64,000 bases of DNA from Bacteroidales bacterium (GTDB lineage Bacteria > Bacteroidota > Bacteroidia > Bacteroidales > B39-G9), in assembly GCA_023133485.1 (NCBI GenBank), contig JAGLWK010000038.1:25352-89351 (forward strand), read 5' to 3'. The notes below the pieces were generated by a model. That model saw only the letters and a list, made by a program, of their open reading frames with translations. It did not search any database and was not told where the DNA came from. Shown here piece by piece: positions 25,988-35,715 of this stretch (position 1 is the stretch's first letter; every line of letters begins with the position of its first letter). The position numbers and the translations under genes were made by a program.

Positions 25988-27286
25988 CTAATGATTCTTT
26001 TTTATTAAGGATATTATTGGATTAAGTATTCTTTGTGATAATCTTAGGTTTTCAGTTATTATTTCGGCATTTCCAAACATTTCCTGGCTAAATTTCAATT
26101 GTTTTCCATAATTTGTTAATAAACCTTCAGGTAATTCTACTTCAACAAGATAAGTCTGATCATTGGGAACTAATGAAATTGAACTCACAATGCCTTTAAC
26201 CATACCATATTCCATATGCGGATAACTAATGAATTTAATATTAACAATTTGACCTGTTTTTACTTTACCCGACCCTGCTAATGGTAAATCTAACTTGCCA
26301 ATAATTTTAGTTGAATCCAAAGGTATAATTGTAAAAACATTTTCACCTGCTATAACATTTTGATTTACACTCCAATATCTGTTAAAAGTAATAATACCTT
26401 TTATAGGTGCTTTAAGCATATATTTTTGTTTCCATACAGATAATTGTGCTTTTAAATTATTGTATGACTCTGAAATAGCCATTTGCATTCTATTTTGTTC
26501 ATCGTTAAAATTTAACTCTAATTCTAATATTGATTGCTTATAATTTGCAATTTGGATTTTAGTATTAGCCAAAGTTGATTGTGAACCTTCAAAAGCATAT
26601 TGTTTTTGTAATAATACACTTTCTGAATTTTCAAATTCTACATCTGAAATTACTTTTTGTTCAAATAAATGTTTTGAGCGTTCAAAATCCTTTTTTGCTA
26701 TTTGATATTCTTTTTCAAGAATATTTCGTTGCAGGGAAAGATGATCGTAATACAAATGTGACATTGCTATCTGTTCATTAACCGATTCTATTTTTTTAGG
26801 ATAATAATTTAACTCAAACAAATTTTTATAATCAGTATAAGCTTTTAAAAATGAAGAAAAGAAAGATTGGATTTCGCCAAATTCAAAATCTTTTATCAGA
26901 AATTGTATTACTGAAGTATCGTATATGTTAATTAAAGGTTTTAACGAATCTAAAGTTTTATCAATAAAAATAATATCATTAAAATTAGCAGGATTCTCAA
27001 TAACAGCTAATAGCTGGTTGTATTGTACATTTTGAGAATCTTTAACAAAAAGATGTTCAATTCTGCCGTTTGTTTTTGCAACAAGTTCAGCAGGAGGATT
27101 TTCTGTTGTAATAATGATATTTGACTGGATTACATCAGGATATTTAAAAAACCAACTGCCAATTAGTAATACTATTATAACAACAAATATTGCACTTATC
27201 CCGGAACGAACCATCCATGAAGGAATATGCCCGAGTATTTCCTGTACTTCTTCGCTTCGTATTTCTATTTTATTTTTTTCTTCCAT
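25988..27286 (-). CDS. HlyD-family membrane fusion (adaptor) protein of the bacteriocin exporter
   Basis: N-terminal TM helix, long coiled-coil middle, C-terminal beta-barrel region. Downstream of the C39-ABC exporter on the same strand. Confidence 0.85.
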   Translation of the reverse strand: MEEKNKIEIRSEEVQEILGHIPSWMVRSGISAIFVVIIVLLIGSWFFKYPDVIQSNIIITTENPPAELVAKTNGRIEHLFVKDSQNVQYNQLLAVIENPANFNDIIFIDKTLDSLKPLINIYDTSVIQFLIKDFEFGEIQSFFSSFLKAYTDYKNLFELNYYPKKIESVNEQIAMSHLYYDHLSLQRNILEKEYQIAKKDFERSKHLFEQKVISDVEFENSESVLLQKQYAFEGSQSTLANTKIQIANYKQSILELELNFNDEQNRMQMAISESYNNLKAQLSVWKQKYMLKAPIKGIITFNRYWSVNQNVIAGENVFTIIPLDSTKIIGKLDLPLAGSGKVKTGQIVNIKFISYPHMEYGMVKGIVSSISLVPNDQTYLVEVELPEGLLTNYGKQLKFSQEMFGNAEIITENLRLSQRILNPIISLIKKNH

Positions 27287-27338
27287 AATTTGACGCAGAT
27301 ATAACTGATAAATTATGATTTGTTATAATTTTTATATT
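27285..27338. repeat. 54-nt direct repeat, copy 1 (abuts the HlyD start codon)
   Basis: ATAATTTGACGCAGATATAACTGATAAATTATGATTTGTTATAATTTTTATATT matches 27492-27545 with one mismatch. Confidence 0.85.
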
Positions 27339-27452
27339 TAGACGCAGATTAACACTGATTATTTATGATTATTTTAAAAATATCAAAATATACATTTTAA
27401 ACAAAAGCAAATCAGTGTAAATCATAAATATCATAATAAATCAGCGTCTAAT
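27337..27452. repeat. small inverted-repeat element built from GACGCAGATT/CACTGATT/TATGATT words
   Basis: Left arm is TTTAGACGCAGATTAACACTGATTATTTATGATT. Right arm is AATCAGTGTAAATCATAAATATCATAATAAATCAGCGTCTAATT. Confidence 0.7.
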
Positions 27453-27468
27453 TGACAAGTTCCAATTG
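27408..27468. repeat. 61-nt direct repeat, copy A (includes a degenerate copy of the last codons of the ABC exporter gene)
   Basis: Aligns without gaps to 28095-28155 with about 5 mismatches. CAATTGGAACTTGTCAATTAG (minus strand) mirrors the exporter terminus CAATTAGAACTTGGAAATTAG (QLELGN*). Confidence 0.8.
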
Positions 27469-27491
27469 TTTTTTTACAATCTTGATTGTTT

Positions 27492-27545
27492 ATAATTTGA
27501 CGCAGATATAACTGATAAATTATGATTTGTTATGATTTTTATATT
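27492..27545. repeat. 54-nt direct repeat, copy 2 (overlaps the GxxExxY gene stop and last codons)
   Basis: See 27285-27338. Confidence 0.85.
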
Positions 27546-27921
27546 CTTCTGTTAATACTCTTCTTTTATATTGCGGTTTTGTACCAAAATTTAATAATAA
27601 ACCTACTTCGATTTCTGTAGCTTTTAAATAATTTACTAACTGTACTTCATGTTCGGGTACAATATTTTCAACTGCTTTAAGTTCAATAATAACTTTGTTT
27701 TCAACAATAATATCAGCATAGTAATCTCCAACTAATTGTTCATTATAATAGACTCTTATTGGTTTCTGTTTTTCACAAATTAATCCAAAACTTTTCAATT
27801 CAATTAACATTGCATTTTCATAAACTTTTTCTAAAAAGCCATAACCTAATTGATTAAAAACATTAAAATAAGCTTTTAATATCTTGCTTGTTACATCTGT
27901 ATGTAAATAATTTGATTTCAT
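27520..27921 (-). CDS. GxxExxY family protein (PD-(D/E)xK nuclease-like fold)
   Basis: 133 aa. GYGFLEKVYENAM (GxxExxY), D..ADIIVENKVIIELK (D-x(n)-E-x-K), and QLVNYLKATEIEVGLLLNFG, all typical of this family. Confidence 0.85.
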   Translation of the reverse strand: MKSNYLHTDVTSKILKAYFNVFNQLGYGFLEKVYENAMLIELKSFGLICEKQKPIRVYYNEQLVGDYYADIIVENKVIIELKAVENIVPEHEVQLVNYLKATEIEVGLLLNFGTKPQYKRRVLTEEYKNHNKS

Positions 27922-27938
27922 TATTGATAATTTTTTAT

Positions 27939-28140
27939 GTTTAGACGCAAATAAACAATAATTATTTTACTTTATTTACAATAATAATCATAATTATCTT
28001 TAAAAATCAGTATATAATTTTAAGTTTGAAAAATTTTCTAAAAAGCTATAAACGAATTAATTAAAAATATTAAAAGATATCTTTAAAATAAAAACAAATC
28101 AGTGTAAATCATAAAAATCATAAAAAATCAGCGTCTAATT
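27939..28140. repeat. second inverted-repeat element of the GACGCA/AATCAGCGTC word family
   Basis: Left arm TTTAGACGCAAATAAACA begins at 27939. The right arm at 28097-28140 is almost identical to the right arm at 27409-27452. Confidence 0.65.
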
Positions 28141-28155
28141 TCCAAGTTCTAATTG
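28095..28155. repeat. 61-nt direct repeat, copy B (overlaps the true 3' end of the ABC exporter gene)
   Basis: See 27408-27468. Confidence 0.8.
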
Positions 28156-30402
28156 ATTTTTAACTAAGTTATAATATGCTCCTTTTTTGTTAGTTAATTC
28201 TTTATGAGTTCCCTGTTCAACAATTTTTCCTTTTTCTAATACTACTATTTGGTCGGCATTTTTAACAGTGCTTAACCTGTGAGCTACAATAACAACTGTT
28301 TTACCTTTAAAAAATTCGTCAAGGTTATTCATAATCACTTTTTCATTGTTTGCATCAAGTGAATTTGTAGCCTCATCAAAAAATAAATATTCAGGGTTTT
28401 TATAAATTGCACGGGCTATTAATATCCTTTGTTTTTGTCCCTGACTTAAACCATGTCCTTCCTGACCTATTTTTGTATTATACCCTAAAGGTAAACTGTC
28501 AATAAATTCTTGAATATTAGCAACTTTAACAGCATTTAACAATTTATTTTTATCTATAATTTCATCGCTAACTGCAATGTTTTTTGCAATAGTATCTGAA
28601 AAAATAAAACCATCCTGCATTACAGCACCACATTTTGCCCGCCAGCTACGATTACTGAAATTTTCAAGCCTTGTTTCACCGAGTTTTATTTCTCCTTTTA
28701 CAGGCGGATAAAAACCAAGCATAAGTTTAACAAGTGTAGTTTTTCCGCTTCCGCTTGTACCTACAATAGCAGTAATTTTACTTGCAGGAACCTCTATGTC
28801 TATGTTATCTATTACCATTTCGGAATGCGGACCTTCGTATTGAAAATGAAGATTTGATATGTTAATATTTTCATTTACAGGGATATCTGAAATTTTTGTA
28901 TCATCAATATCTTCTTCATCGTCTTTGTTGTGGATTTCGCCAAGACGTTCAAGACTTATTTTAGCATCCTGAGTTGACTGGAAAAAACCTAACATTTGGT
29001 CGATAGGACTATTTAACTGTCCGATAATATATTGTACCGCCAGCATCATACCAAGTGTCATATCACCACTTATTACTGAAGTTGCTGCTATTATTGTAAT
29101 AATTATGTTTTTTGTTTCGTTTACTAATACCGAACCTGCTTGCTGATATTGATTAAGAGATAAACTTTTAATATTTACTTTAAATAATTTTGCCTGAATA
29201 CTTTCCCATTCCCAGCGTTTCTGTTTTTCGCAGTTATTCAGCTTTATCTCCTGCATACCCGTAATTAATTGTATTATATTACTTTGGTTATCAGACATTT
29301 GTGCAAAACGTTTAAAATCTAAAGTCCTGCGTTTTTTCATGAAGATATTTATCCAAAGTATATATATTGTACTACCGATAATAAAAACAGCAAGTATTTT
29401 TAAGCTGTAAATTGCAAGCACGATACCAAAAATAACAAGGTTAACAAACGAAAATAAAATATTTAACGAGGATGAGGTAAGAAAACTTTCAATACGGCGG
29501 TGGTCTTGTATTCTTTGCATAAGGTCGCCAATCATCTTGGTATCGAAAAAACCTATGGGCAGTTTCATTAATTTTATCAGGAAATCTGAAATAAGCGATA
29601 TATTTATTCGGGTGCTTATATGCAAAAGTATCCAACTGCGAATAAAGTCAACGGTTGAACGGCTAATGGTTAATACAAGCTGGGCAATTAGTACAAGATA
29701 TATAAAATTCAGATTTTGATTATTAATACCAAAATCAACAACCGATTGTGTAAGAAAGGGGAAAATAAGTTGCAGCAAACTTCCAAGTAACATACCCAGC
29801 ATTAATTGAGTAATAAACTTACCATGTGGCTTTAGATATGAGAAAAGAAATTTAAAGCCTGACTTGTTTAATTTTTCATCGTCTGTTTTATAAAAATCGG
29901 GGGCAGGTTCTAATAAAAGACAAAGTCCTTTATCTTCTCCTTCTTTTTTTGTACTGAGCCAGCAATTGAGAAATTCTTTTTTTGTATATTTTACATGACC
30001 ATGTCCCGGGTCGGCAACATAAACATTACAATCGTCATTACGAACCGCAGGCGAAGTAATCTCTTTATTTGTATAGTATTGTTTCTGTTTTAACCCTCGC
30101 AATGACGAGCGTTTTTTTATTTTATAAACAACAACAAAATGATTTTGTTTCCAGTGAACAATACAAGGCAAAGGAGATTCGTTTTCAAGCTGCTCAAAAG
30201 TTATTCTAACTCCTTTTGTACGCATACCAATACTTTCGGCAGCATCGCTGATGCCAAGCATTGATACACCTTCGCGGGTAATAAAACTTCTGCCACGTAA
30301 AGTTTGTAAATTATATGTTTTCCCATAATACTTTGCTATCATGCGCAGGCAGGCGGGGCCGCAGTCCATGGCGTCTAATTGTTTGTAAAAGGGAAAGCTC
30401 AT
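28135..30402 (-). CDS. peptidase C39 domain-containing ABC transporter (double-glycine leader-cleaving bacteriocin/RiPP exporter)
   Basis: N-terminal C39 motif QLDAMDCGPACLRMI, with His in HWKQNHFVV and ADPGHG. Six-TM domain, Walker A GTSGSGKTT, signature LSQGQKQR, Walker B LFFDEATSALD-like (LFFDEATNSLD). Confidence 0.9.
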   Translation of the reverse strand: MSFPFYKQLDAMDCGPACLRMIAKYYGKTYNLQTLRGRSFITREGVSMLGISDAAESIGMRTKGVRITFEQLENESPLPCIVHWKQNHFVVVYKIKKRSSLRGLKQKQYYTNKEITSPAVRNDDCNVYVADPGHGHVKYTKKEFLNCWLSTKKEGEDKGLCLLLEPAPDFYKTDDEKLNKSGFKFLFSYLKPHGKFITQLMLGMLLGSLLQLIFPFLTQSVVDFGINNQNLNFIYLVLIAQLVLTISRSTVDFIRSWILLHISTRINISLISDFLIKLMKLPIGFFDTKMIGDLMQRIQDHRRIESFLTSSSLNILFSFVNLVIFGIVLAIYSLKILAVFIIGSTIYILWINIFMKKRRTLDFKRFAQMSDNQSNIIQLITGMQEIKLNNCEKQKRWEWESIQAKLFKVNIKSLSLNQYQQAGSVLVNETKNIIITIIAATSVISGDMTLGMMLAVQYIIGQLNSPIDQMLGFFQSTQDAKISLERLGEIHNKDDEEDIDDTKISDIPVNENINISNLHFQYEGPHSEMVIDNIDIEVPASKITAIVGTSGSGKTTLVKLMLGFYPPVKGEIKLGETRLENFSNRSWRAKCGAVMQDGFIFSDTIAKNIAVSDEIIDKNKLLNAVKVANIQEFIDSLPLGYNTKIGQEGHGLSQGQKQRILIARAIYKNPEYLFFDEATNSLDANNEKVIMNNLDEFFKGKTVVIVAHRLSTVKNADQIVVLEKGKIVEQGTHKELTNKKGAYYNLVKNQLELGN
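30033..30107. repeat. 75-nt palindromic element inserted in frame (25 codons) in the C39 peptidase domain
   Basis: Terminal inverted repeats CGTCATTACGA (30033-30043) and TCGCAATGACG (30097-30107). Locally GC-richer. Encodes SSLRGLKQKQYYTNKEITSPAVRND between the conserved VVVYKIKK and VYVADPGHG blocks. Confidence 0.6.
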
Positions 30403-31469
30403 TTTGTAGTAATTCCTTCTTTTATACTTTCTTCAACTGTTTTATATCCCTCTTGTCCTTTCCATTTAGCAATATATGGATTATAATTGCATTTGGCAGG
30501 TTGTGAATATATGTTTTTTGGGTCTTTAATAAAGACTCTGCAATCAGTACACATATATCTAAATTCACAGTCTTTACATACTTCAATTTTATCTTTATGA
30601 ATGTGCCATAAATCTTTAAATCCGGGTTTTTCAATTGCTTCTTTTAAAGTAATATCTTTTATATTGCCATAATCTTTTTCGATTGCTGGACAGTTTTTTA
30701 TGAAACCATTTTCATCTATACTTGCTTTGCGATTTAAACAAGTATTGTATTTTTTAGATTCTGAAAAAAATGTCAAATTAGTTGAAAAATATTCTGGTGA
30801 AACATATCCACAATGATCTTTGTCTATAATGTTTTTTAAAAAAATAATATCTGTTTTTTGATTTTTATTCATTGGTTTAATTAAAAAATCATTTGAAGAA
30901 AAAATAATTATTTTCTGTAGTCTAGGAAAACTATATGCAATTTCAACTAAATTATTCATAGAAGTTTCTTGTGAATATTTTAATACTAGTTCAATTGAGT
31001 TAATACTTGTTTTTGTAACTTCAAGTAAAATATCTTTTAATTTATGAAAGTTTATTGAAGTATAAAATCTTAGCTGAATATGCTTACAAAAAAGTTTATC
31101 TAACTGAAATAATACAGTTTTTAATATATCAATATTTGAATATTCAATTATAGCGTTTGTTATATATGAAGGAAACTGCCAATCAATTGATATATCAGGA
31201 AAATAGTCTAATTCATGTGCTTCACAAATAAATACTAATTTTTTGTCAATTAAATAATTAAAGTATTCATCAATTATTTCATTATGTTCATTACCAAAAG
31301 CTTTCTTTATTTCTTTAAGAGATTTATCTTTATATTCAGTTAAAATATCAAATAAAATATTTGGAATAAAAAAATATTCATGTTTTAAAAAATCTATAAT
31401 AAGACTGCGTCGCCATCCCTTTACATGTATGCAATCAGCATATAATTTATAAAAAATTTTCATTTTCAA
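30399..31469 (-). CDS. SPASM-domain peptide maturase lacking a canonical radical-SAM cluster motif
   Basis: C-terminal C244-x10-G-x4-C260, C298-x2-C301-x5-C307-x2-C310 and C327, seven Cys in SPASM spacing. The first 240 residues hold only 4 isolated Cys and no CxxxCxxC. Has a 4-nt stop/start overlap with the exporter gene. Confidence 0.8.
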   Translation of the reverse strand: MKMKIFYKLYADCIHVKGWRRSLIIDFLKHEYFFIPNILFDILTEYKDKSLKEIKKAFGNEHNEIIDEYFNYLIDKKLVFICEAHELDYFPDISIDWQFPSYITNAIIEYSNIDILKTVLFQLDKLFCKHIQLRFYTSINFHKLKDILLEVTKTSINSIELVLKYSQETSMNNLVEIAYSFPRLQKIIIFSSNDFLIKPMNKNQKTDIIFLKNIIDKDHCGYVSPEYFSTNLTFFSESKKYNTCLNRKASIDENGFIKNCPAIEKDYGNIKDITLKEAIEKPGFKDLWHIHKDKIEVCKDCEFRYMCTDCRVFIKDPKNIYSQPAKCNYNPYIAKWKGQEGYKTVEESIKEGITTK

Positions 31470-31641
31470 AATTAATGAATGTACATATCAGTTTATAGAA
31501 ATTTCTAATTTTGGAAACTTCACTTTGTTTTTTCTGGATTTTATCAAGCTTATTACTCAAATTATCACTACCTACACTTATTATATTATTAAATAATGGT
31601 GGCAGTATTGGATAATATGTTTTTTTATTTAATGTTTTCAT
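31447..31641 (-). CDS. small coupled ORF of unknown function (64 aa)
   Basis: The start overlaps the ATP-grasp stop by 4 nt and the end overlaps the SPASM gene start by 23 nt. It fills the otherwise empty gap exactly. No recognisable motif. Confidence 0.4.
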   Translation of the reverse strand: MKTLNKKTYYPILPPLFNNIISVGSDNLSNKLDKIQKKQSEVSKIRNFYKLICTFINFENENFL

Positions 31642-32606
31642 ATTAATTTCTCAGCAATTTTCATTTCCAGATTATAATTACATAATTCAGAAACATTTTG
31701 AAAAATACCTACAGGATTTACTTCTAAAAAAACAAACTCATTTGAAGTTGAATAAATCATATCAATACCTCCACAATCAATTTGCATTCGTTTCATTAAT
31801 ATACATAGCTTATTCCTAATATCTTCAGGCAACCTGAAAGGAACTGATCTAATATCAGTAATATCTCCTGCCCTATAATCAATAGAATTATTTTTATTTT
31901 CTTTTGAAAAAATAGCACAAGAATAGAACTCATTATCAATAAAAAATGTCCTTATTTCATGCTTTTTTTCTATTTTTTTTTGTATTAAAGTAGGGAAAAG
32001 CAAGCCTGATATTGAAGGTTCAGGAATATTTATGTACCCAGTTCGAGAAACATAATAAGCCTTTTTTTCGGTATAAGAAAATACTTCTTGTATAGGTTTT
32101 GTTATATATTTTTTATTTTTAGTATATTTTTTTAATACTTCTTTTTCAGTAACTACACTGGTATTTGGAATTGAAAGTCCGCACTCTTGTGCATATTCAA
32201 GTTGCATTAATTTATTAGGAAAACCTGTAAAAAAATTACCAACATGTTTTTTTATTTGTATTAAATGAAAAATATATTCTTTCAATATATACCACTCTCT
32301 ATTAAGAAAAGTTTCTATTTCTTTATCTATATTATCTAGGGGTATTTTAAAATATTCTCCAAATAAGTTAGGAAGAATTCCATTTCGTATCCAAACGGAA
32401 TATATATCAGATAATTTAAAATGGCTATTATTAACAATTAATTCTATATCAATGCCCACACGTTTTGAGAGAATATTTAAGTAACTAAAATTAAAATCAG
32501 TTGTAGGTGTTATTCTTATAATTTGTTTTCCTAAGAAATGAAGATGGTCAATAACACTATCAACGTCTGGGTCAAAATCTTTAGATATAATAAGAATAAT
32601 GCTCAT
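31638..32606 (-). CDS. ATP-grasp peptide maturase (RiPP macrolactone/lactam ligase-like)
   Basis: C-terminal ATP-grasp pattern HEIRTFFIDNEFYSCAIF...IDYRAGD...GGIDMIYSTSNEFVFLEVNPVGIF. The N-terminal ILIISKDFDPDVDSVIDHL pre-ATP-grasp region resembles that of RiPP ATP-grasp ligases. Confidence 0.75.
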   Translation of the reverse strand: MSIILIISKDFDPDVDSVIDHLHFLGKQIIRITPTTDFNFSYLNILSKRVGIDIELIVNNSHFKLSDIYSVWIRNGILPNLFGEYFKIPLDNIDKEIETFLNREWYILKEYIFHLIQIKKHVGNFFTGFPNKLMQLEYAQECGLSIPNTSVVTEKEVLKKYTKNKKYITKPIQEVFSYTEKKAYYVSRTGYINIPEPSISGLLFPTLIQKKIEKKHEIRTFFIDNEFYSCAIFSKENKNNSIDYRAGDITDIRSVPFRLPEDIRNKLCILMKRMQIDCGGIDMIYSTSNEFVFLEVNPVGIFQNVSELCNYNLEMKIAEKLI

Positions 32607-33823
32607 TTGACATATTTAATTATATTTATATTTTTAATATTTCTAATTTCCGTTAAACCATCAATAGTAAGCACTATATTAATGCCTTTTTCATTATATA
32701 AATTAACTTTTTCAAAATATATTTGATCAGATGTTAGGTAATATTTTTCAACACGAGCTTGTGCTGAAAATTGAAACCAAAATTTATAATCATCTCCTAA
32801 TTCTCCCTTTTTCTTTTGAATATAAACTGATTTTTTATATTCACTGTCAAAAGAATCTAATCCGATTTTTTTTCTTTCCTCATTGAATTTACTAATATTT
32901 TCCGTATTTATATTATTGTTAAACCATAATTCTTCTAATATTTCTAATGAATTTAAATCAGCTGGAGTTAATTTTTTTGGTCCATTATATCGTATGTATT
33001 TACATATTCCTATTTTTCCAAAAATATTTTTCGGATTGTTATATTCAAGACCATCACGCATAATATACGACGATAATTTACCTTTTTCAATTAAGCTGAT
33101 TAATGCAATAAATAAGCGTTCATCCTTTAATACTTTATTATAAAATTCATAATGTTTATCTTCAGTCTTTACATATATTTTTGCTCTATTCACCATGCCA
33201 AAATAGTGACGAATTAAAACCCATGGTATTATGCTTCGTGTTTTTAATTTTTCAAAATCGAATAATTCAACATCAGGCAGACTATCTGAATTTATTAATT
33301 GCAGCAATCTTAATCCATTTTTATAATATATTTTGTCAATGTAATATTGCATTGTATCATGTTCATATAGTTTTATTGTTTCTTTTTGATCAATATCAAC
33401 TAACTTTTGAAGTATTTTAAATCCTTCAGTATTTGTTTTATTTAAATATATATTTCTTAATGAATCATAAATGAGAACAAGTTTTTTCCACTTTTCTGTA
33501 TTATGAAGAGGTGAAAAAAAAGAACTTTGAAAATAATTTAAAGTATAGCCTTTTAAAACACAGCTATCAATATATTGAAAAGCCCTTTTATATTCTTTCC
33601 TTAGGGTTAGTGCTAAAGCTATATTGTAATTATCAATACCACGGGAAAATTGATGTTTTTTGAAAGAATTTTCATATAAAAATATTGCTTTATTATACTT
33701 ATTATCAATGATATATAATTCGGCATCATTGATATCTTTGAGGTATTGCCCGTGAGAGAAGGATATAAATATAAAAAATATTTTGAAAAATAAAATAATT
33801 TTAAAAACAGGAATAATTTGCAT
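32603..33823 (-). CDS. secreted or membrane-anchored TPR-like protein of unknown function
   Basis: N-terminal hydrophobic signal/anchor (VFKIILFFKIFFIFISFSHG), then helical-repeat-like sequence. Has a 4-nt overlap with the ATP-grasp start. Confidence 0.55.
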   Translation of the reverse strand: MQIIPVFKIILFFKIFFIFISFSHGQYLKDINDAELYIIDNKYNKAIFLYENSFKKHQFSRGIDNYNIALALTLRKEYKRAFQYIDSCVLKGYTLNYFQSSFFSPLHNTEKWKKLVLIYDSLRNIYLNKTNTEGFKILQKLVDIDQKETIKLYEHDTMQYYIDKIYYKNGLRLLQLINSDSLPDVELFDFEKLKTRSIIPWVLIRHYFGMVNRAKIYVKTEDKHYEFYNKVLKDERLFIALISLIEKGKLSSYIMRDGLEYNNPKNIFGKIGICKYIRYNGPKKLTPADLNSLEILEELWFNNNINTENISKFNEERKKIGLDSFDSEYKKSVYIQKKKGELGDDYKFWFQFSAQARVEKYYLTSDQIYFEKVNLYNEKGINIVLTIDGLTEIRNIKNINIIKYVK

Positions 33824-33910
33824 AATTTTATTGTATTTAAGGCATTATATAAATTTGTTTCTGTATTTTTTTCTAAATTATTTTTTTGAACTAAATTAAT
33901 GTTTTACATT

Positions 33911-33952
33911 AAAAAAAATACGGAAAACCAAAATTTATTCAATCTTCCGTAT
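33911..33952 (-). terminator. hairpin plus T-run just downstream of the precursor gene (terminator/attenuator)
   Basis: On the minus strand: ATACGGAA-19 nt loop-TTCCGTAT followed by TTTTTTTT. Lies 65 nt after the precursor stop and before the maturase genes. Confidence 0.5.
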
Positions 33953-34016
33953 ATACTTTAGTATTCTTATTTTAAGTTTCTAATATATCGATTAATTAAT
34001 TATTAACTTTAGCTTT

Positions 34017-34217
34017 TTAATGTCGCAGTCGCCAATTTGTGTATACAATTGCGTCATCACAAAGCCACTCATCAACAGTATAGCATTTCCCACCTGTACA
34101 ATAACCACCAGTCCCTGTAAAAATACATGCTCCTCCTTTTATACTTTTCAAATCAGAAAAACTTAGTTTTTCAAATTTTTTAAACGTATCACTGTTTAAA
34201 CTTTCTAATTTTTTCAT
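34017..34217 (-). CDS. RiPP precursor peptide with double-glycine leader
   Basis: The leader ...LSFSDLKSIKGG fits LSxxELxxIxGG. The 37-aa core is ACIFTGTGGYCTGGKCYTVDEWLCDDAIVYTNWRLRH, with 4 Cys, 5 Thr, 1 Lys and 4 Asp/Glu. It heads the maturase/exporter gene string. Confidence 0.8.
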   Translation of the reverse strand: MKKLESLNSDTFKKFEKLSFSDLKSIKGGACIFTGTGGYCTGGKCYTVDEWLCDDAIVYTNWRLRH

Positions 34218-34406: not shown

Positions 34407-34775
34407 GTGGAATTACACATTGGTATAATAATAAAACAAAGAGTTGATGAATTAGGTATATCCAAAGCCGAATTTGCTCGCCGTATTAATACAACTTCTC
34501 AAAATATTTATGGAATTTTTAAAAGAAAATCAATTGACACTAATTTACTAATAAAAATATCTCAAGTATTAAATCATAATTTTTTTCAGTATTTTACTTC
34601 GTCAGTCATAAAAGTAAAGGAAGAAAAGGAGATGCTCAACTCTAATATTTCAATAGTTGATTTGTCTGATAAGATATCTAATATCGAGAATAAACTACAA
34701 ATAGCTCAAAAAGAAATTTCTTTAAAGGACAAGATTATTTTATTATTGGAAGAAAAAATTGGAAAATCTAAATAA
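34407..34775 (+). CDS. HTH-domain transcriptional regulator with C-terminal coiled coil
   Basis: IKQRVDELGISKAEFARRINTTSQNIYGIFKRKSI is an XRE/Cro-like HTH. GTG start. Divergent from the precursor gene. Confidence 0.6.
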   Translation: MELHIGIIIKQRVDELGISKAEFARRINTTSQNIYGIFKRKSIDTNLLIKISQVLNHNFFQYFTSSVIKVKEEKEMLNSNISIVDLSDKISNIENKLQIAQKEISLKDKIILLLEEKIGKSK

Positions 34776-34793
34776 ATATTCCAAATTTCATTT

Positions 34794-35042
34794 GTGAAAT
34801 ATATCAGAGATAAAATAGGGATTAAGTTATTAGGAAAAAAAATCAGACAATTGCGAAAACAACAAAAAATTTCTCAAAGTCAATTAGCATTTGAATCGGG
34901 TATTCCCAGAAACCAAGTTGTAAGTATTGAGTTAGGAAAAATAAATACTGGAGTAAGTACTATTTTTGTTATTTCAAAAGCTTTAAATATCCACCCCAAA
35001 GAATTGTTAGATTTTGATTATCCTTTGGATTTTCAGGAATGA
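34794..35042 (+). CDS. XRE-family HTH transcriptional regulator
   Basis: LGKKIRQLRKQQKISQSQLAFESGIPRNQVVSIELGK...ISKALNIHPKELL is a canonical XRE HTH. GTG start in the ORF track. Confidence 0.75.
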   Translation: MKYIRDKIGIKLLGKKIRQLRKQQKISQSQLAFESGIPRNQVVSIELGKINTGVSTIFVISKALNIHPKELLDFDYPLDFQE

Positions 35043-35475: not shown

Positions 35476-35715
35476 ATGAAAAATTATTTAGATAGAATAA
35501 ACTTAAATCCTGCAATATGTAACGGAAAGCCAATAATCAGGAATATGAGGATAACTGTTAAAACAATCCTTGAATATTTAGCAGCAGGGGAGTCTATTAA
35601 AAATATTTTAAAGGCTTATCCATCATTACAAAAAGAAGACATAATTGCCTGTTTTCAGTTTGCTTCTGCAATTCTTGACACAAATATCCCTGTTTCACAT
35701 TTAATAGACTCTTGA
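35476..35715 (+). CDS. DUF433 domain protein (antitoxin-like)
   Basis: NPAICNGKPIIRNMRITVKTILEYLAAGESIKNILKAYPSLQKEDIIACFQFA is the typical DUF433 pattern. Confidence 0.8.
   Translation: MKNYLDRINLNPAICNGKPIIRNMRITVKTILEYLAAGESIKNILKAYPSLQKEDIIACFQFASAILDTNIPVSHLIDS

Follow-up and report, generated by a model that had tools for sequence, protein, structure and literature searches.

The grasp-with-spasm (gws) system, defined computationally by the two marker families TIGR04192 (GwsG) and TIGR04193 (GwsS), has been described as graspetide group 14 in RODEO (PMC13097080) and, by Makarova et al. 2022 (PMC8939145), as ATP-grasp branch 5. The description of branch 5 includes the LPL family of small proteins, the first motif of which resembles a leader motif that activates the ligase and that gws precursors lack, and proposes thioethers for the Cys-containing precursors (PMC8939145). 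Graspetide ligases that depend on a partner protein exist in other groups, such as rosaritide MirC (PMC13097080). A total of 190 gws loci were counted in 2022, and mobile elements in Porphyromonas gingivalis, an oral pathogen, also carry the system. The family is large, with GwsS relatives encoded in the genomes of at least 584 species, and, as an earlier note on the DNA analyzed here had supposed, no characterized product of the gws system turned up in the literature searched. To our knowledge, no function has been assigned to a SPASM protein lacking the radical-SAM site.

Locus organization

The window analyzed here, a 64-kb stretch of DNA from a Bacteroidales MAG, carries a string of minus-strand genes that the earlier note had described as running from precursor to exporter, and all of its listed ORFs were found in place in the ORF list of the window (Table 1). 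The order given for the named genes held from the precursor to the HlyD adaptor, though the note had missed a GxxExxY gene that separates the exporter from HlyD. In NCBIfam profile searches, a check that the note had suggested, the ATP-grasp protein scored 246.6 bits against TIGR04192 (curated cut-off, 230) and the SPASM protein 324.3 bits against TIGR04193 (curated cut-off, 175), which places both maturases in the gws marker families and bears out the name 'grasp-with-spasm system' given in the note. The locus is probably a gws graspetide biosynthetic operon, with a predicted mechanism, and is well-formed but ordinary among such gene clusters. The novelty implied earlier did not survive; the architecture has been published, its 64-aa and 406-aa genes among the parts described (PMC8939145, PMC13097080), and GenBank already names the window genes likewise (ATP-grasp and 100%-identical SPASM protein). 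The family, its accessory genes, and the window locus itself are thus already catalogued and the genome-scan find is not new; what is new here is the survey of GwsS motifs and profiles, the Cys conservation, the likeness of the GwsS model to CteB and SuiB, and the share of Cys-free cores.

The genes for GwsG and GwsS lie on one strand with the 64-aa ORF alone between them, stops and starts overlapping. The chain of overlaps from the 406-aa gene to the exporter was reproduced, with 4 nt shared at the 406-aa/ATP-grasp, ATP-grasp/64-aa, and SPASM/ABC junctions and 23 nt at the 64-aa/SPASM junction, counted from a TTG start (17 nt if the ATG in GenBank is the true start), and from this arrangement the five genes are predicted to be translationally coupled. 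Compact, coupled, and with a single precursor, the locus is a candidate for heterologous expression. The two XRE-type genes are oriented divergently from the operon and are possible regulators, adjacency being their sole link to it.

Table 1. Features of the gws locus, in positions of the window
Feature	Position	Strand	Size and basis
Precursor peptide	34017..34217	-	66 aa; ORF call
Terminator-like hairpin and T-run	33908..33952	-	between precursor and maturase genes; folding
406-aa protein, cluster 23 family (putative)	32603..33823	-	iterative HMM, family description
GwsG, ATP-grasp peptide maturase	31638..32606	-	322 aa; TIGR04192
LPL family small protein	31447..31641	-	64 aa; position and motifs
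GwsS, SPASM-domain protein	30399..31469	-	TIGR04193
C39-ABC exporter (PCAT type)	28135..30402	-	755 aa; Pfam, PDB matches
C39-domain in-frame insert	30032..30108	-	~27 aa
GxxExxY / PD-(D/E)XK_3 gene	27520..27921	-	133 aa; TIGR04256, PF13366
HlyD-family periplasmic adaptor	25988..27286	-	432 aa; TIGR01843, PF13437
Two XRE-type helix-turn-helix genes	34407-34775, 34794-35042	+	Pfam HTH_3

Precursor and candidate cores

The precursor (GenBank MCK4661866.1, 'hypothetical') consists of a 29-aa leader, MKKLESLNSDTFKKFEKLSFSDLKSIKGG, and a 37-aa core, ACIFTGTGGYCTGGKCYTVDEWLCDDAIVYTNWRLRH, the latter with five Thr, three Asp, one Glu, one Lys, and four Cys. The leader is of the double-glycine (GG) type, with Gly at positions -1 and -2 and Ile, Leu, Leu, and Phe at -4, -7, -12, and -15, and is similar in sequence to TIGR04149 (GG_sam_targ_CFB), yet the peptide is not a member of that family, reaching 21.6 bits (E = 1.5e-4; cut-off, 25) over the leader region only. 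The peptide forms a singleton cluster, and its resemblance to the peptides of other gws loci is confined to the leader. Across 73 loci, 58 leader-like ORFs were found on the operon strand (in 42 of the loci) versus four on the opposite strand, a ~14-fold enrichment that upholds the linkage to GG leaders across genomes for which a co-occurrence check had been proposed.

The candidate cores encoded by these ORFs are hypervariable, the common pattern being richness in Thr/Ser and Asp/Glu only. Cys is absent from 23 of the 58 cores (40%) and from every candidate core in 16 of the 42 loci, and the SPASM Cys ligands are kept in loci with Cys-free cores. Among the candidate cores, Cys counts had no even/odd bias. 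The hairpin and T-run noticed earlier behind the window precursor was confirmed by folding, with a 15-bp stem (33952-33918) followed by eight Ts and an energy of -16.6 kcal/mol (z = -4.9; 0/200 shuffles folded as well), and probably acts as an attenuator that yields more precursor than enzyme.

Ligase and small proteins

The best solved relatives of GwsG are the graspetide ligases CdnC, AMdnB, MdnC, and MdnB. An ATP-grasp homologue is present in 77 of the 79 related loci and, wherever both genes are complete, lies directly upstream of the SPASM gene, with the order ATP-grasp, small ORF, SPASM gene constant. By analogy with MdnC and CdnC, GwsG would install omega-ester macrocycles between Thr/Ser and Asp/Glu side chains in the 37-aa core, and possibly also omega-amide macrocycles between Lys and Asp/Glu; ligase homology together with the Thr, Asp, Glu, and Lys content of the core would likewise assign the window product to the graspetide class.

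In most of the related loci, an ORF of ~50–90 aa occupies the LPL position, and two motifs, (L/F/V)P-h-x-(F/Y) and FYKPIS(K/R), recur in 54 aligned ORFs. The 64-aa ORF of the window, with its closest relative in locus L006, carries YPILPPLF and, toward its C-terminal end, FYKLICTF, for which the consensus of the family is FYKPISK. The 406-aa protein, placed by published description, appears to belong to the cluster 23 family of secreted proteins or lipoproteins (PMC8939145). Relatives identified with an iterative HMM occur in 38 of the 79 gws loci, most often right upstream of the gene that encodes the ATP-grasp protein, and the family has 491 representatives in a library of 1.8 billion proteins, with a conserved core that includes the invariant H206 and R317. 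Of the earlier label 'secreted TPR-like', the first part agrees with an N-terminal hydrophobic signal or anchor helix, while TPR assignment comes down to weak sub-threshold matches; the N-terminal region is helical-repeat, and the AF2 model (pLDDT 87) has a best PDB fold match at E = 0.2. Its closest relatives carry a lipobox Cys that is absent from the window protein. From family knowledge, this signal-peptide protein may have an extracytoplasmic role in processing, immunity, or binding.

Predicted structure and role of GwsS

GwsS (356 aa when translation begins at TTG, 354 aa when at ATG) is predicted to comprise an RRE-like beta3-4/alpha3 module (residues ~1–90), a short alpha/beta domain (~100–215), and the SPASM domain (~220–340), the latter being more conserved than the rest of the protein and having numerous polar positions that do not vary. 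Eight Cys are invariant (C220, C244, C260, C298, C301, C307, C310, and C327). The CX3CX2C motif was absent from the first 215 residues of all homologues (0/84), no homologue matched Pfam Radical_SAM at E ≤ 1 (0/48), the consensus lacks a GGE-type motif, and GwsS has no match to the PqqD profile. The earlier description 'radical-SAM-less' is therefore accurate, and by these sequence criteria GwsS cannot be a normal radical-SAM enzyme, against the usual assumption. In the AF2 model (pLDDT 92), the N-terminal topology is beta1-4 followed by alpha1-3 and the central domain spans ~115 residues; the top Foldseek matches were CteB (5wgg), SuiB (5v1q), anSME (4k37), and EpeE, with low whole-chain TM-scores (0.36). 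The RRE assignment is accordingly a model-based one, drawn from predicted topology and low-TM matches.

We tentatively favor a reading in which GwsS is not a radical-SAM cross-linker and acts, with LPL, as a partner protein of GwsG. GwsS would descend from RRE-radical SAM-SPASM maturases, with loss of the SAM cluster and retention of two auxiliary Fe-S sites, and together with LPL would recognize the leader and activate GwsG on hypervariable cores. This reading is favored because the radical-SAM motif and profile are missing, because the best matches of GwsS are the RRE-containing CteB and SuiB and the model has an N-terminal beta/alpha module, because GwsS is conserved while the cores are hypervariable and often Cys-free, and because LPL has two conserved motifs, the first like the missing leader motif. 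A more specific version, offered with greater reserve, is that GwsS is a pseudo-enzyme or a SAM-independent Fe-S protein that is tethered by LPL, reads GG leaders, and licenses ATP-grasp macrocyclization; the N-terminal motif of LPL would contact the ligase and the FYKPISK motif the SPASM domain. The eight invariant Cys and the many invariant polar residues of the SPASM domain suggest more than a pure scaffold.

It is unlikely that GwsS is instead a catalytic cross-linker that adds a Cys link (thioether or similar) atop the ATP-grasp esters, the double cross-link predicted by the earlier note. The four Cys of the window core, the invariant SPASM Cys ligands, and the nearest folds, thioether-forming CteB and cross-linking SuiB, speak for such an activity, as does the thioether proposal of Makarova et al. 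for branch 5 (PMC8939145). Set against these are the family-wide absence of the radical-SAM motif and profile, the lack of even/odd bias in Cys counts, and the loci in which Cys-free cores are the sole kind and GwsS is unchanged. Without the radical-SAM cluster, hydrogen abstraction, and with it the known thioether chemistry, is therefore unavailable to GwsS. All SPASM cross-linkers known to us use hydrogen abstraction. Because the SAM motif is missing and 40% of the cores are Cys-free, a Cys-based second cross-link is unlikely as a universal feature, and the predicted doubly cross-linked product of Cys and Thr/Asp/Glu is not supported; a leader-binding partner or adaptor role for GwsS is at least as likely as Cys-based cross-linking.

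Similarly doubtful is a role for GwsS as a SAM-independent Fe-S enzyme that modifies residues other than Cys in a way shared by all cores, whether by oxidation, dehydrogenation, epimerization-like chemistry, or redox editing of the ester rings. Such a role would fit the conservation and invariant polar residues of the SPASM domain and the strict co-occurrence of GwsS and GwsG across phyla, but the cores share no residue pattern beyond Thr/Ser and Asp/Glu richness, and no precedent for a SPASM domain that is catalytic by itself was found in the literature searched or is known to us.

The comparative data speak against thioethers as the default assumption, in that the SAM motif is missing family-wide, the Fe-S ligands are always retained, and cores without Cys are common; any requirement of the ligase for GwsS and LPL is now directly testable. 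If true, LPL-tethered licensing would give the 'pseudo-rSAM/SPASM' class its first defined function and would overturn the published thioether assumption for gws loci.

Export genes and insertions

The exporter has Peptidase_C39, ABC_membrane, and ABC_tran Pfam domains, retains Q8, C14, H88, and D131 as well as the Walker A, signature, and Walker B motifs, and matches PCAT1 (4ry2) and ComA (8hf7) in the PDB by sequence. Its predicted make-up is that by which PCATs are defined, with a C39 domain at the N-terminus that bears the catalytic Cys and His, and with transmembrane and nucleotide-binding domains. From family knowledge, the C39 domain would cut behind Gly28-Gly29, and the exporter and HlyD would carry the product out. 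The HlyD adaptor matches TIGR01843 (E = 9.5e-30, below the cut-off) and PF13437 (HlyD_3), and an ABC-HlyD pair lies directly behind the SPASM gene in many related loci. In the window, the two genes are 848 nt apart, with the GxxExxY gene (TIGR04256, 136.7 bits; PF13366) between them, flanked by local direct repeats and probably a passenger; loci L006, L013, L077, and L079 have a member of this family at the corresponding place. The C39 domain contains an in-frame, palindromic insert of ~27 aa, located in a hairpin loop between the catalytic H88 and D131 and with 12-nt inverted repeats in its DNA (TCGTCATTGCGA and TCGTAATGACGA). The insert is missing from most homologous exporters, and unrelated inserts occur at the same loop in several lineages.

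Both insertions could impair export, though they appear tolerated because both kinds recur in other lineages or loci. It is highly improbable that the locus is in decay or non-functional, its exporter hurt by the insert and its ABC-HlyD pair split by the GxxExxY gene: the insert does fall between the catalytic residues and the spacer is repeat-rich with a passenger gene, but the reading frames are all intact and coupled, different inserts occupy the same loop elsewhere, and the ABC-GxxExxY-HlyD order is found in four other loci.

Comparison with described systems

The microviridin and chryseoviridin pathways (MdnB/MdnC, CdnC) share with the window locus a homologous ATP-grasp ligase (E = 1e-16 to 1e-18), a Thr- and Asp/Glu-rich core, and a ribosomal precursor with a leader. 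In contrast, the window ligase scores 114 and 101 bits against MvdC and MvdD (cut-offs, 425 and 475), the window precursor lacks the ligase-binding leader motif (PMC8939145), and gws has an obligate SPASM protein and an LPL protein and no acetyltransferase. Rosaritide MirC-type systems (PMC13097080) likewise have a strictly co-occurring non-ligase protein, required for the activity of the MirC-type ligase, by analogy to which the role of GwsS and LPL is proposed, whereas the partners share no relationship and the systems fall into different graspetide groups.

The RRE-radical SAM-SPASM maturases CteB (5wgg) and SuiB (5v1q) are the best structural matches of the GwsS model and share the SPASM pattern CX15C...CX2CX5CX2C...C and the N-terminal beta/alpha module. 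Unlike them, GwsS is without CX3CX2C, a GGE-type consensus motif, or a Radical_SAM profile match, and its central domain is about half as long (TM-scores, 0.36). The families TIGR04150 (pseudo-rSAM protein), TIGR04347 (pseudo-SAM/SPASM protein), and TIGR04304 (GeoRSP SPASM protein) also bear SPASM domains and are named as lacking a working radical-SAM site, but GwsS homologues match them weakly and in the SPASM region only, and they are separate families with other partners; no characterized member of the three was found.

With the gws system, the window locus shares both marker proteins above cut-off, a Bacteroidota host, a GG-leader precursor upstream, and the order putative cluster-23 protein, ATP-grasp, LPL, SPASM protein, C39-ABC, and HlyD. 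It differs in a unique core, with likeness to others in the leader only, in a GwsS whose nearest relative is only ~50% identical, and in the GxxExxY gene between ABC and HlyD and the C39 insert.

Identity of the locus

The locus in the window belongs to the grasp-with-spasm (gws) system, a known, named, and bioinformatically well-described system. The ATP-grasp protein (GwsG) scores 246.6 bits against TIGR04192, ‘grasp-with-spasm system ATP-grasp peptide maturase’ (cut-off, 230), and the SPASM protein (GwsS) 324.3 bits against TIGR04193, ‘grasp-with-spasm system SPASM domain peptide maturase’ (cut-off, 175), in agreement with the earlier note, which had read an ATP-grasp and SPASM RiPP cluster from the sequence alone. 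The closest solved relatives of GwsG are the graspetide ligases CdnC, AMdnB, MdnC, and MdnB. GenBank already holds all of the genes that were looked up, as part of a Bacteroidales MAG (six of them under MCK4661859-66), with gws names on the two maturases and the label ‘hypothetical’ on the precursor, the 64-aa protein, and the 406-aa protein.

As described by Makarova et al. 2022 (PMC8939145), ‘branch 5’ comprises 190 Bacteroidetes loci encoding an ATP-grasp, a TIGR04193 protein, a C39-ABC exporter, HlyD, and hypervariable precursors with GG leaders, along with a small protein of the ‘LPL family’, always immediately 5′ of the SPASM gene, and ‘cluster 23’, a predicted secreted protein or lipoprotein. 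The names gwsG and gwsS come from a 2026 preprint, where the genes are on P. gingivalis conjugative elements. The literature searched consists of bioinformatic descriptions only, with no characterised gws product or biochemistry of a stand-alone SPASM protein.

Operon organization and genomic setting

Consecutive genes from the 406-aa protein to the exporter are joined by stop/start overlaps, of 4 nt at three junctions and 23 nt at the junction between the 64-aa ORF and the SPASM gene (17 nt if the ATG chosen by GenBank is taken as the start). Past the precursor stop codon, at a distance of 65 nt, is a 15-bp hairpin with a run of eight Ts after it; its folding energy of −16.6 kcal/mol (z = −4.9) was equalled by none of 200 shuffled sequences. 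The earlier note had described this minus-strand gene string, its overlaps, the double-glycine precursor, and the hairpin with T-run, all of which hold, and the genes from precursor to exporter stand as it listed them, but it overlooked a GxxExxY gene and an insert in the C39 domain.

Features of the gws locus and adjacent genes in the window
Feature	Coordinates	Strand	Length or remark
HlyD adaptor	25988-27286	minus	432 aa
GxxExxY/PD-(D/E)XK_3 gene	27520-27921	minus	separates ABC exporter from HlyD
C39-ABC exporter	28135-30402	minus	755 aa
In-frame C39 insert (RSSLRGLKQKQYYTNKEITSPAVRNDD)	30032-30108	minus	~27 aa; hairpin loop between catalytic His88 and Asp131
SPASM protein GwsS	30399-31469	minus	356 aa
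Small ORF (LPL)	31447-31641	minus	64 aa
ATP-grasp GwsG	31638-32606	minus	322 aa
406-aa protein	32603-33823	minus	406 aa
Precursor	34017-34217	minus	66 aa
Two XRE-type HTH genes	34407-35042	plus	divergent from precursor promoter region
DUF433 gene	35476-35715	plus	beyond the two XRE-type HTH genes

A sigma-70 promoter scan of this AT-rich Bacteroidota sequence gave no useful information (82 hits, 71 expected). In base composition the gws region does not stand apart from its flanks, where the genes are housekeeping in nature (PorV2, pssA, a Nudix CoA pyrophosphatase, and an apparent tyrosyl-tRNA synthetase, the last read from its translation). The XRE-type HTH and DUF433 genes may be regulators or toxin-antitoxin-like genes.

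The gene linkage is conserved across genomes. In the protein collection, at least 720 entries belong to the GwsS family, and relatives occur in at least 584 species genomes, chiefly Bacteroidota and also Thermoanaerobaculia and Longimicrobiaceae. An ATP-grasp homologue is present in 77 of the 79 fetched loci, directly upstream of GwsS in every locus with complete copies of the two genes. Among these related loci from other genomes (L0xx), six carry two or three tandem ATP-grasp/SPASM modules, each with its own small ORF (L026, L037, L045, L047, L064, and L072). L007, a typical Bacteroidota-type locus, occurs on a contig labelled as a Hyphomicrobiales MAG (a binned alphaproteobacterium), a placement that may reflect a binning error or horizontal transfer.

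Precursors and core peptides

The window precursor has a textbook double-glycine leader, with GG at −2/−1 and I, L, L, and F at −4, −7, −12, and −15, and a core containing 4 Cys, 5 Thr, 3 Asp, 1 Glu, and 1 Lys; a search for additional precursors in the window found none. Across 73 loci, 58 leader-like GG peptides were found in 42 on the operon strand (4 on the opposite strand), mostly at 2.5 kb or less upstream of the gene for the ATP-grasp. Thr/Ser and Asp/Glu each account for ~15% of core residues in the related loci. A disulfide-only peptide was considered for the Cys-rich core and dropped, as Cys counts per core have no even bias family-wide (19 even, 16 odd); the window core may still form disulfides or something else, which would be a trait of the peptide and not of the gws system. 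In six Thermoanaerobaculia/Acidobacteriota loci (L039, L046, L048, L058, L063, and L070), a conserved Cys-free core of TQTAVT.YETANPNPDF.RDGD.E type is encoded downstream of GwsS instead of upstream of the ATP-grasp, in contrast to the hypervariable cores of the Bacteroidota.

The small protein and the 406-aa protein

Between the ATP-grasp and SPASM genes, most loci have a small ORF of ~50-90 aa in which two motifs are conserved, (L/F/V)P-h-x-(F/Y) and, towards the C-terminus, FYKPIS(K/R). The window 64-aa ORF carries both, as YPILPPLF and FYKLICTF, and is therefore a real LPL-family gene. A role for the 64-aa protein as a second substrate, a precursor with a conserved core, is the less likely reading, as the protein lacks a GG site and conserved Asp/Glu and is found in single copy per gws module, beside GwsS.

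Relatives of the 406-aa protein occur in 38 of 79 loci (iterative HMM), usually just upstream of the ATP-grasp; a k-mer homologue search returned 3 relatives and an exhaustive HMMER search of a 1.8-billion-protein library 491 representatives, with H206 and R317 invariant in the family. The AlphaFold2 (AF2) model is confident (pLDDT 87) and looks TPR-like only in its N-terminal helices; Pfam gave weak TPR matches only, and in a PDB fold search with the model the best match had E = 0.2.

Exporter and spacer

The exporter matches PCAT1 and ComA in the PDB and retains Q8, C14, H88, and D131 along with the nucleotide-binding motifs. The DNA of its C39 insert bears 12-nt inverted repeats and in this resembles a small palindromic mobile element; no further copies of the repeat were found in the window. 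Because the exporters of L006/L013, L037/L049, L055, L057, L075, and L079 have unrelated inserts in the same loop, the loop looks like a tolerated insertion hot-spot.

The GxxExxY gene lies within a repeat-rich spacer (27287-28134), where 27374-27477 resembles 28061-28164 (87%), taking in the 3′ end of the ABC gene, and 27285-27338 is repeated at 27492-27545 (98%); 28029-28089 looks like what is left of a second GxxExxY N-terminus. In L006, L013, L077, and L079, the same ABC-HlyD position is held by a gene of this family (38-74% identity), a recurrence that points to a site preferred for insertion or, alternatively, to a gene long resident there.

The SPASM protein and the predicted chemistry

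Eight Cys are invariant in GwsS (C220, C244, C260, C298, C301, C307, C310, and C327); their arrangement is of the SPASM type and could hold two [4Fe-4S] clusters. Pfam SPASM is matched by 36 of 48 family members, and Radical_SAM or PqqD by none of the 48 at E ≤ 1; CX3CX2C is absent from the first 215 residues of all 84 homologues, and the consensus shows no GGE-type motif. The AF2 model (pLDDT 92) is tripartite: four strands and three helices build an N-terminal module (~1-90), followed by a short alpha/beta domain (~100-215) and lastly the SPASM domain. Residues 1-95 gave no PqqD/RRE match against Pfam, and the assignment of the N-terminus as a RiPP recognition element (RRE) is therefore structural only.

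By analogy with the MdnC/CdnC family, GwsG would form omega-ester and possibly omega-amide rings, and, as in the PCAT/ComA family, the leader would be cut after Gly-Gly and the product exported with HlyD. For GwsS, we tentatively propose, as possible rather than probable, that its N-terminal module binds the generic leader while LPL bridges GwsS and GwsG. The N-terminal motif of LPL resembles the ligase-activating leader motif that is missing from gws precursors (PMC8939145). Partner-dependent ligases have recent precedent in other graspetide groups.

That GwsS is instead a SAM-independent Fe-S enzyme working on non-Cys residues is improbable. It is likewise unlikely to be a catalytic Cys cross-linker, a role in keeping with the doubly cross-linked Cys and Thr/Asp/Glu product predicted by the earlier note. 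Among the related loci, 23 of 58 candidate cores are Cys-free, as are all candidates in 16 of 42 loci, while the eight SPASM Cys are kept in 18 of 18 GwsS sequences from Cys-free loci, making a universal Cys-based cross-link by GwsS unlikely; radical chemistry, moreover, lacks its cofactor site. A decaying locus is highly improbable. The interest that remains centres on the chemistry of the family at large and on the SPASM-only protein, two questions that this analysis narrows.

Comparison with known SPASM maturases

The GwsS family profile gave nothing meaningful against PDB sequences (E > 0.1). Weak matches link GwsS to other ‘pseudo-rSAM’ NCBIfam families, and the category is thus one recognised computationally. 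The best structural matches of the model are CteB (E = 1e-6) and SuiB, then anSME and EpeE, with low TM-scores (0.3-0.4). CteB and SuiB, which GwsS resembles in predicted fold at this level, are RRE-radical SAM-SPASM maturases, whereas GwsS has neither the CX3CX2C motif nor a Radical_SAM match. We read this as probable descent of GwsS from maturases of the CteB/SuiB kind, in the course of which the barrel was presumably shortened and the SAM site lost.
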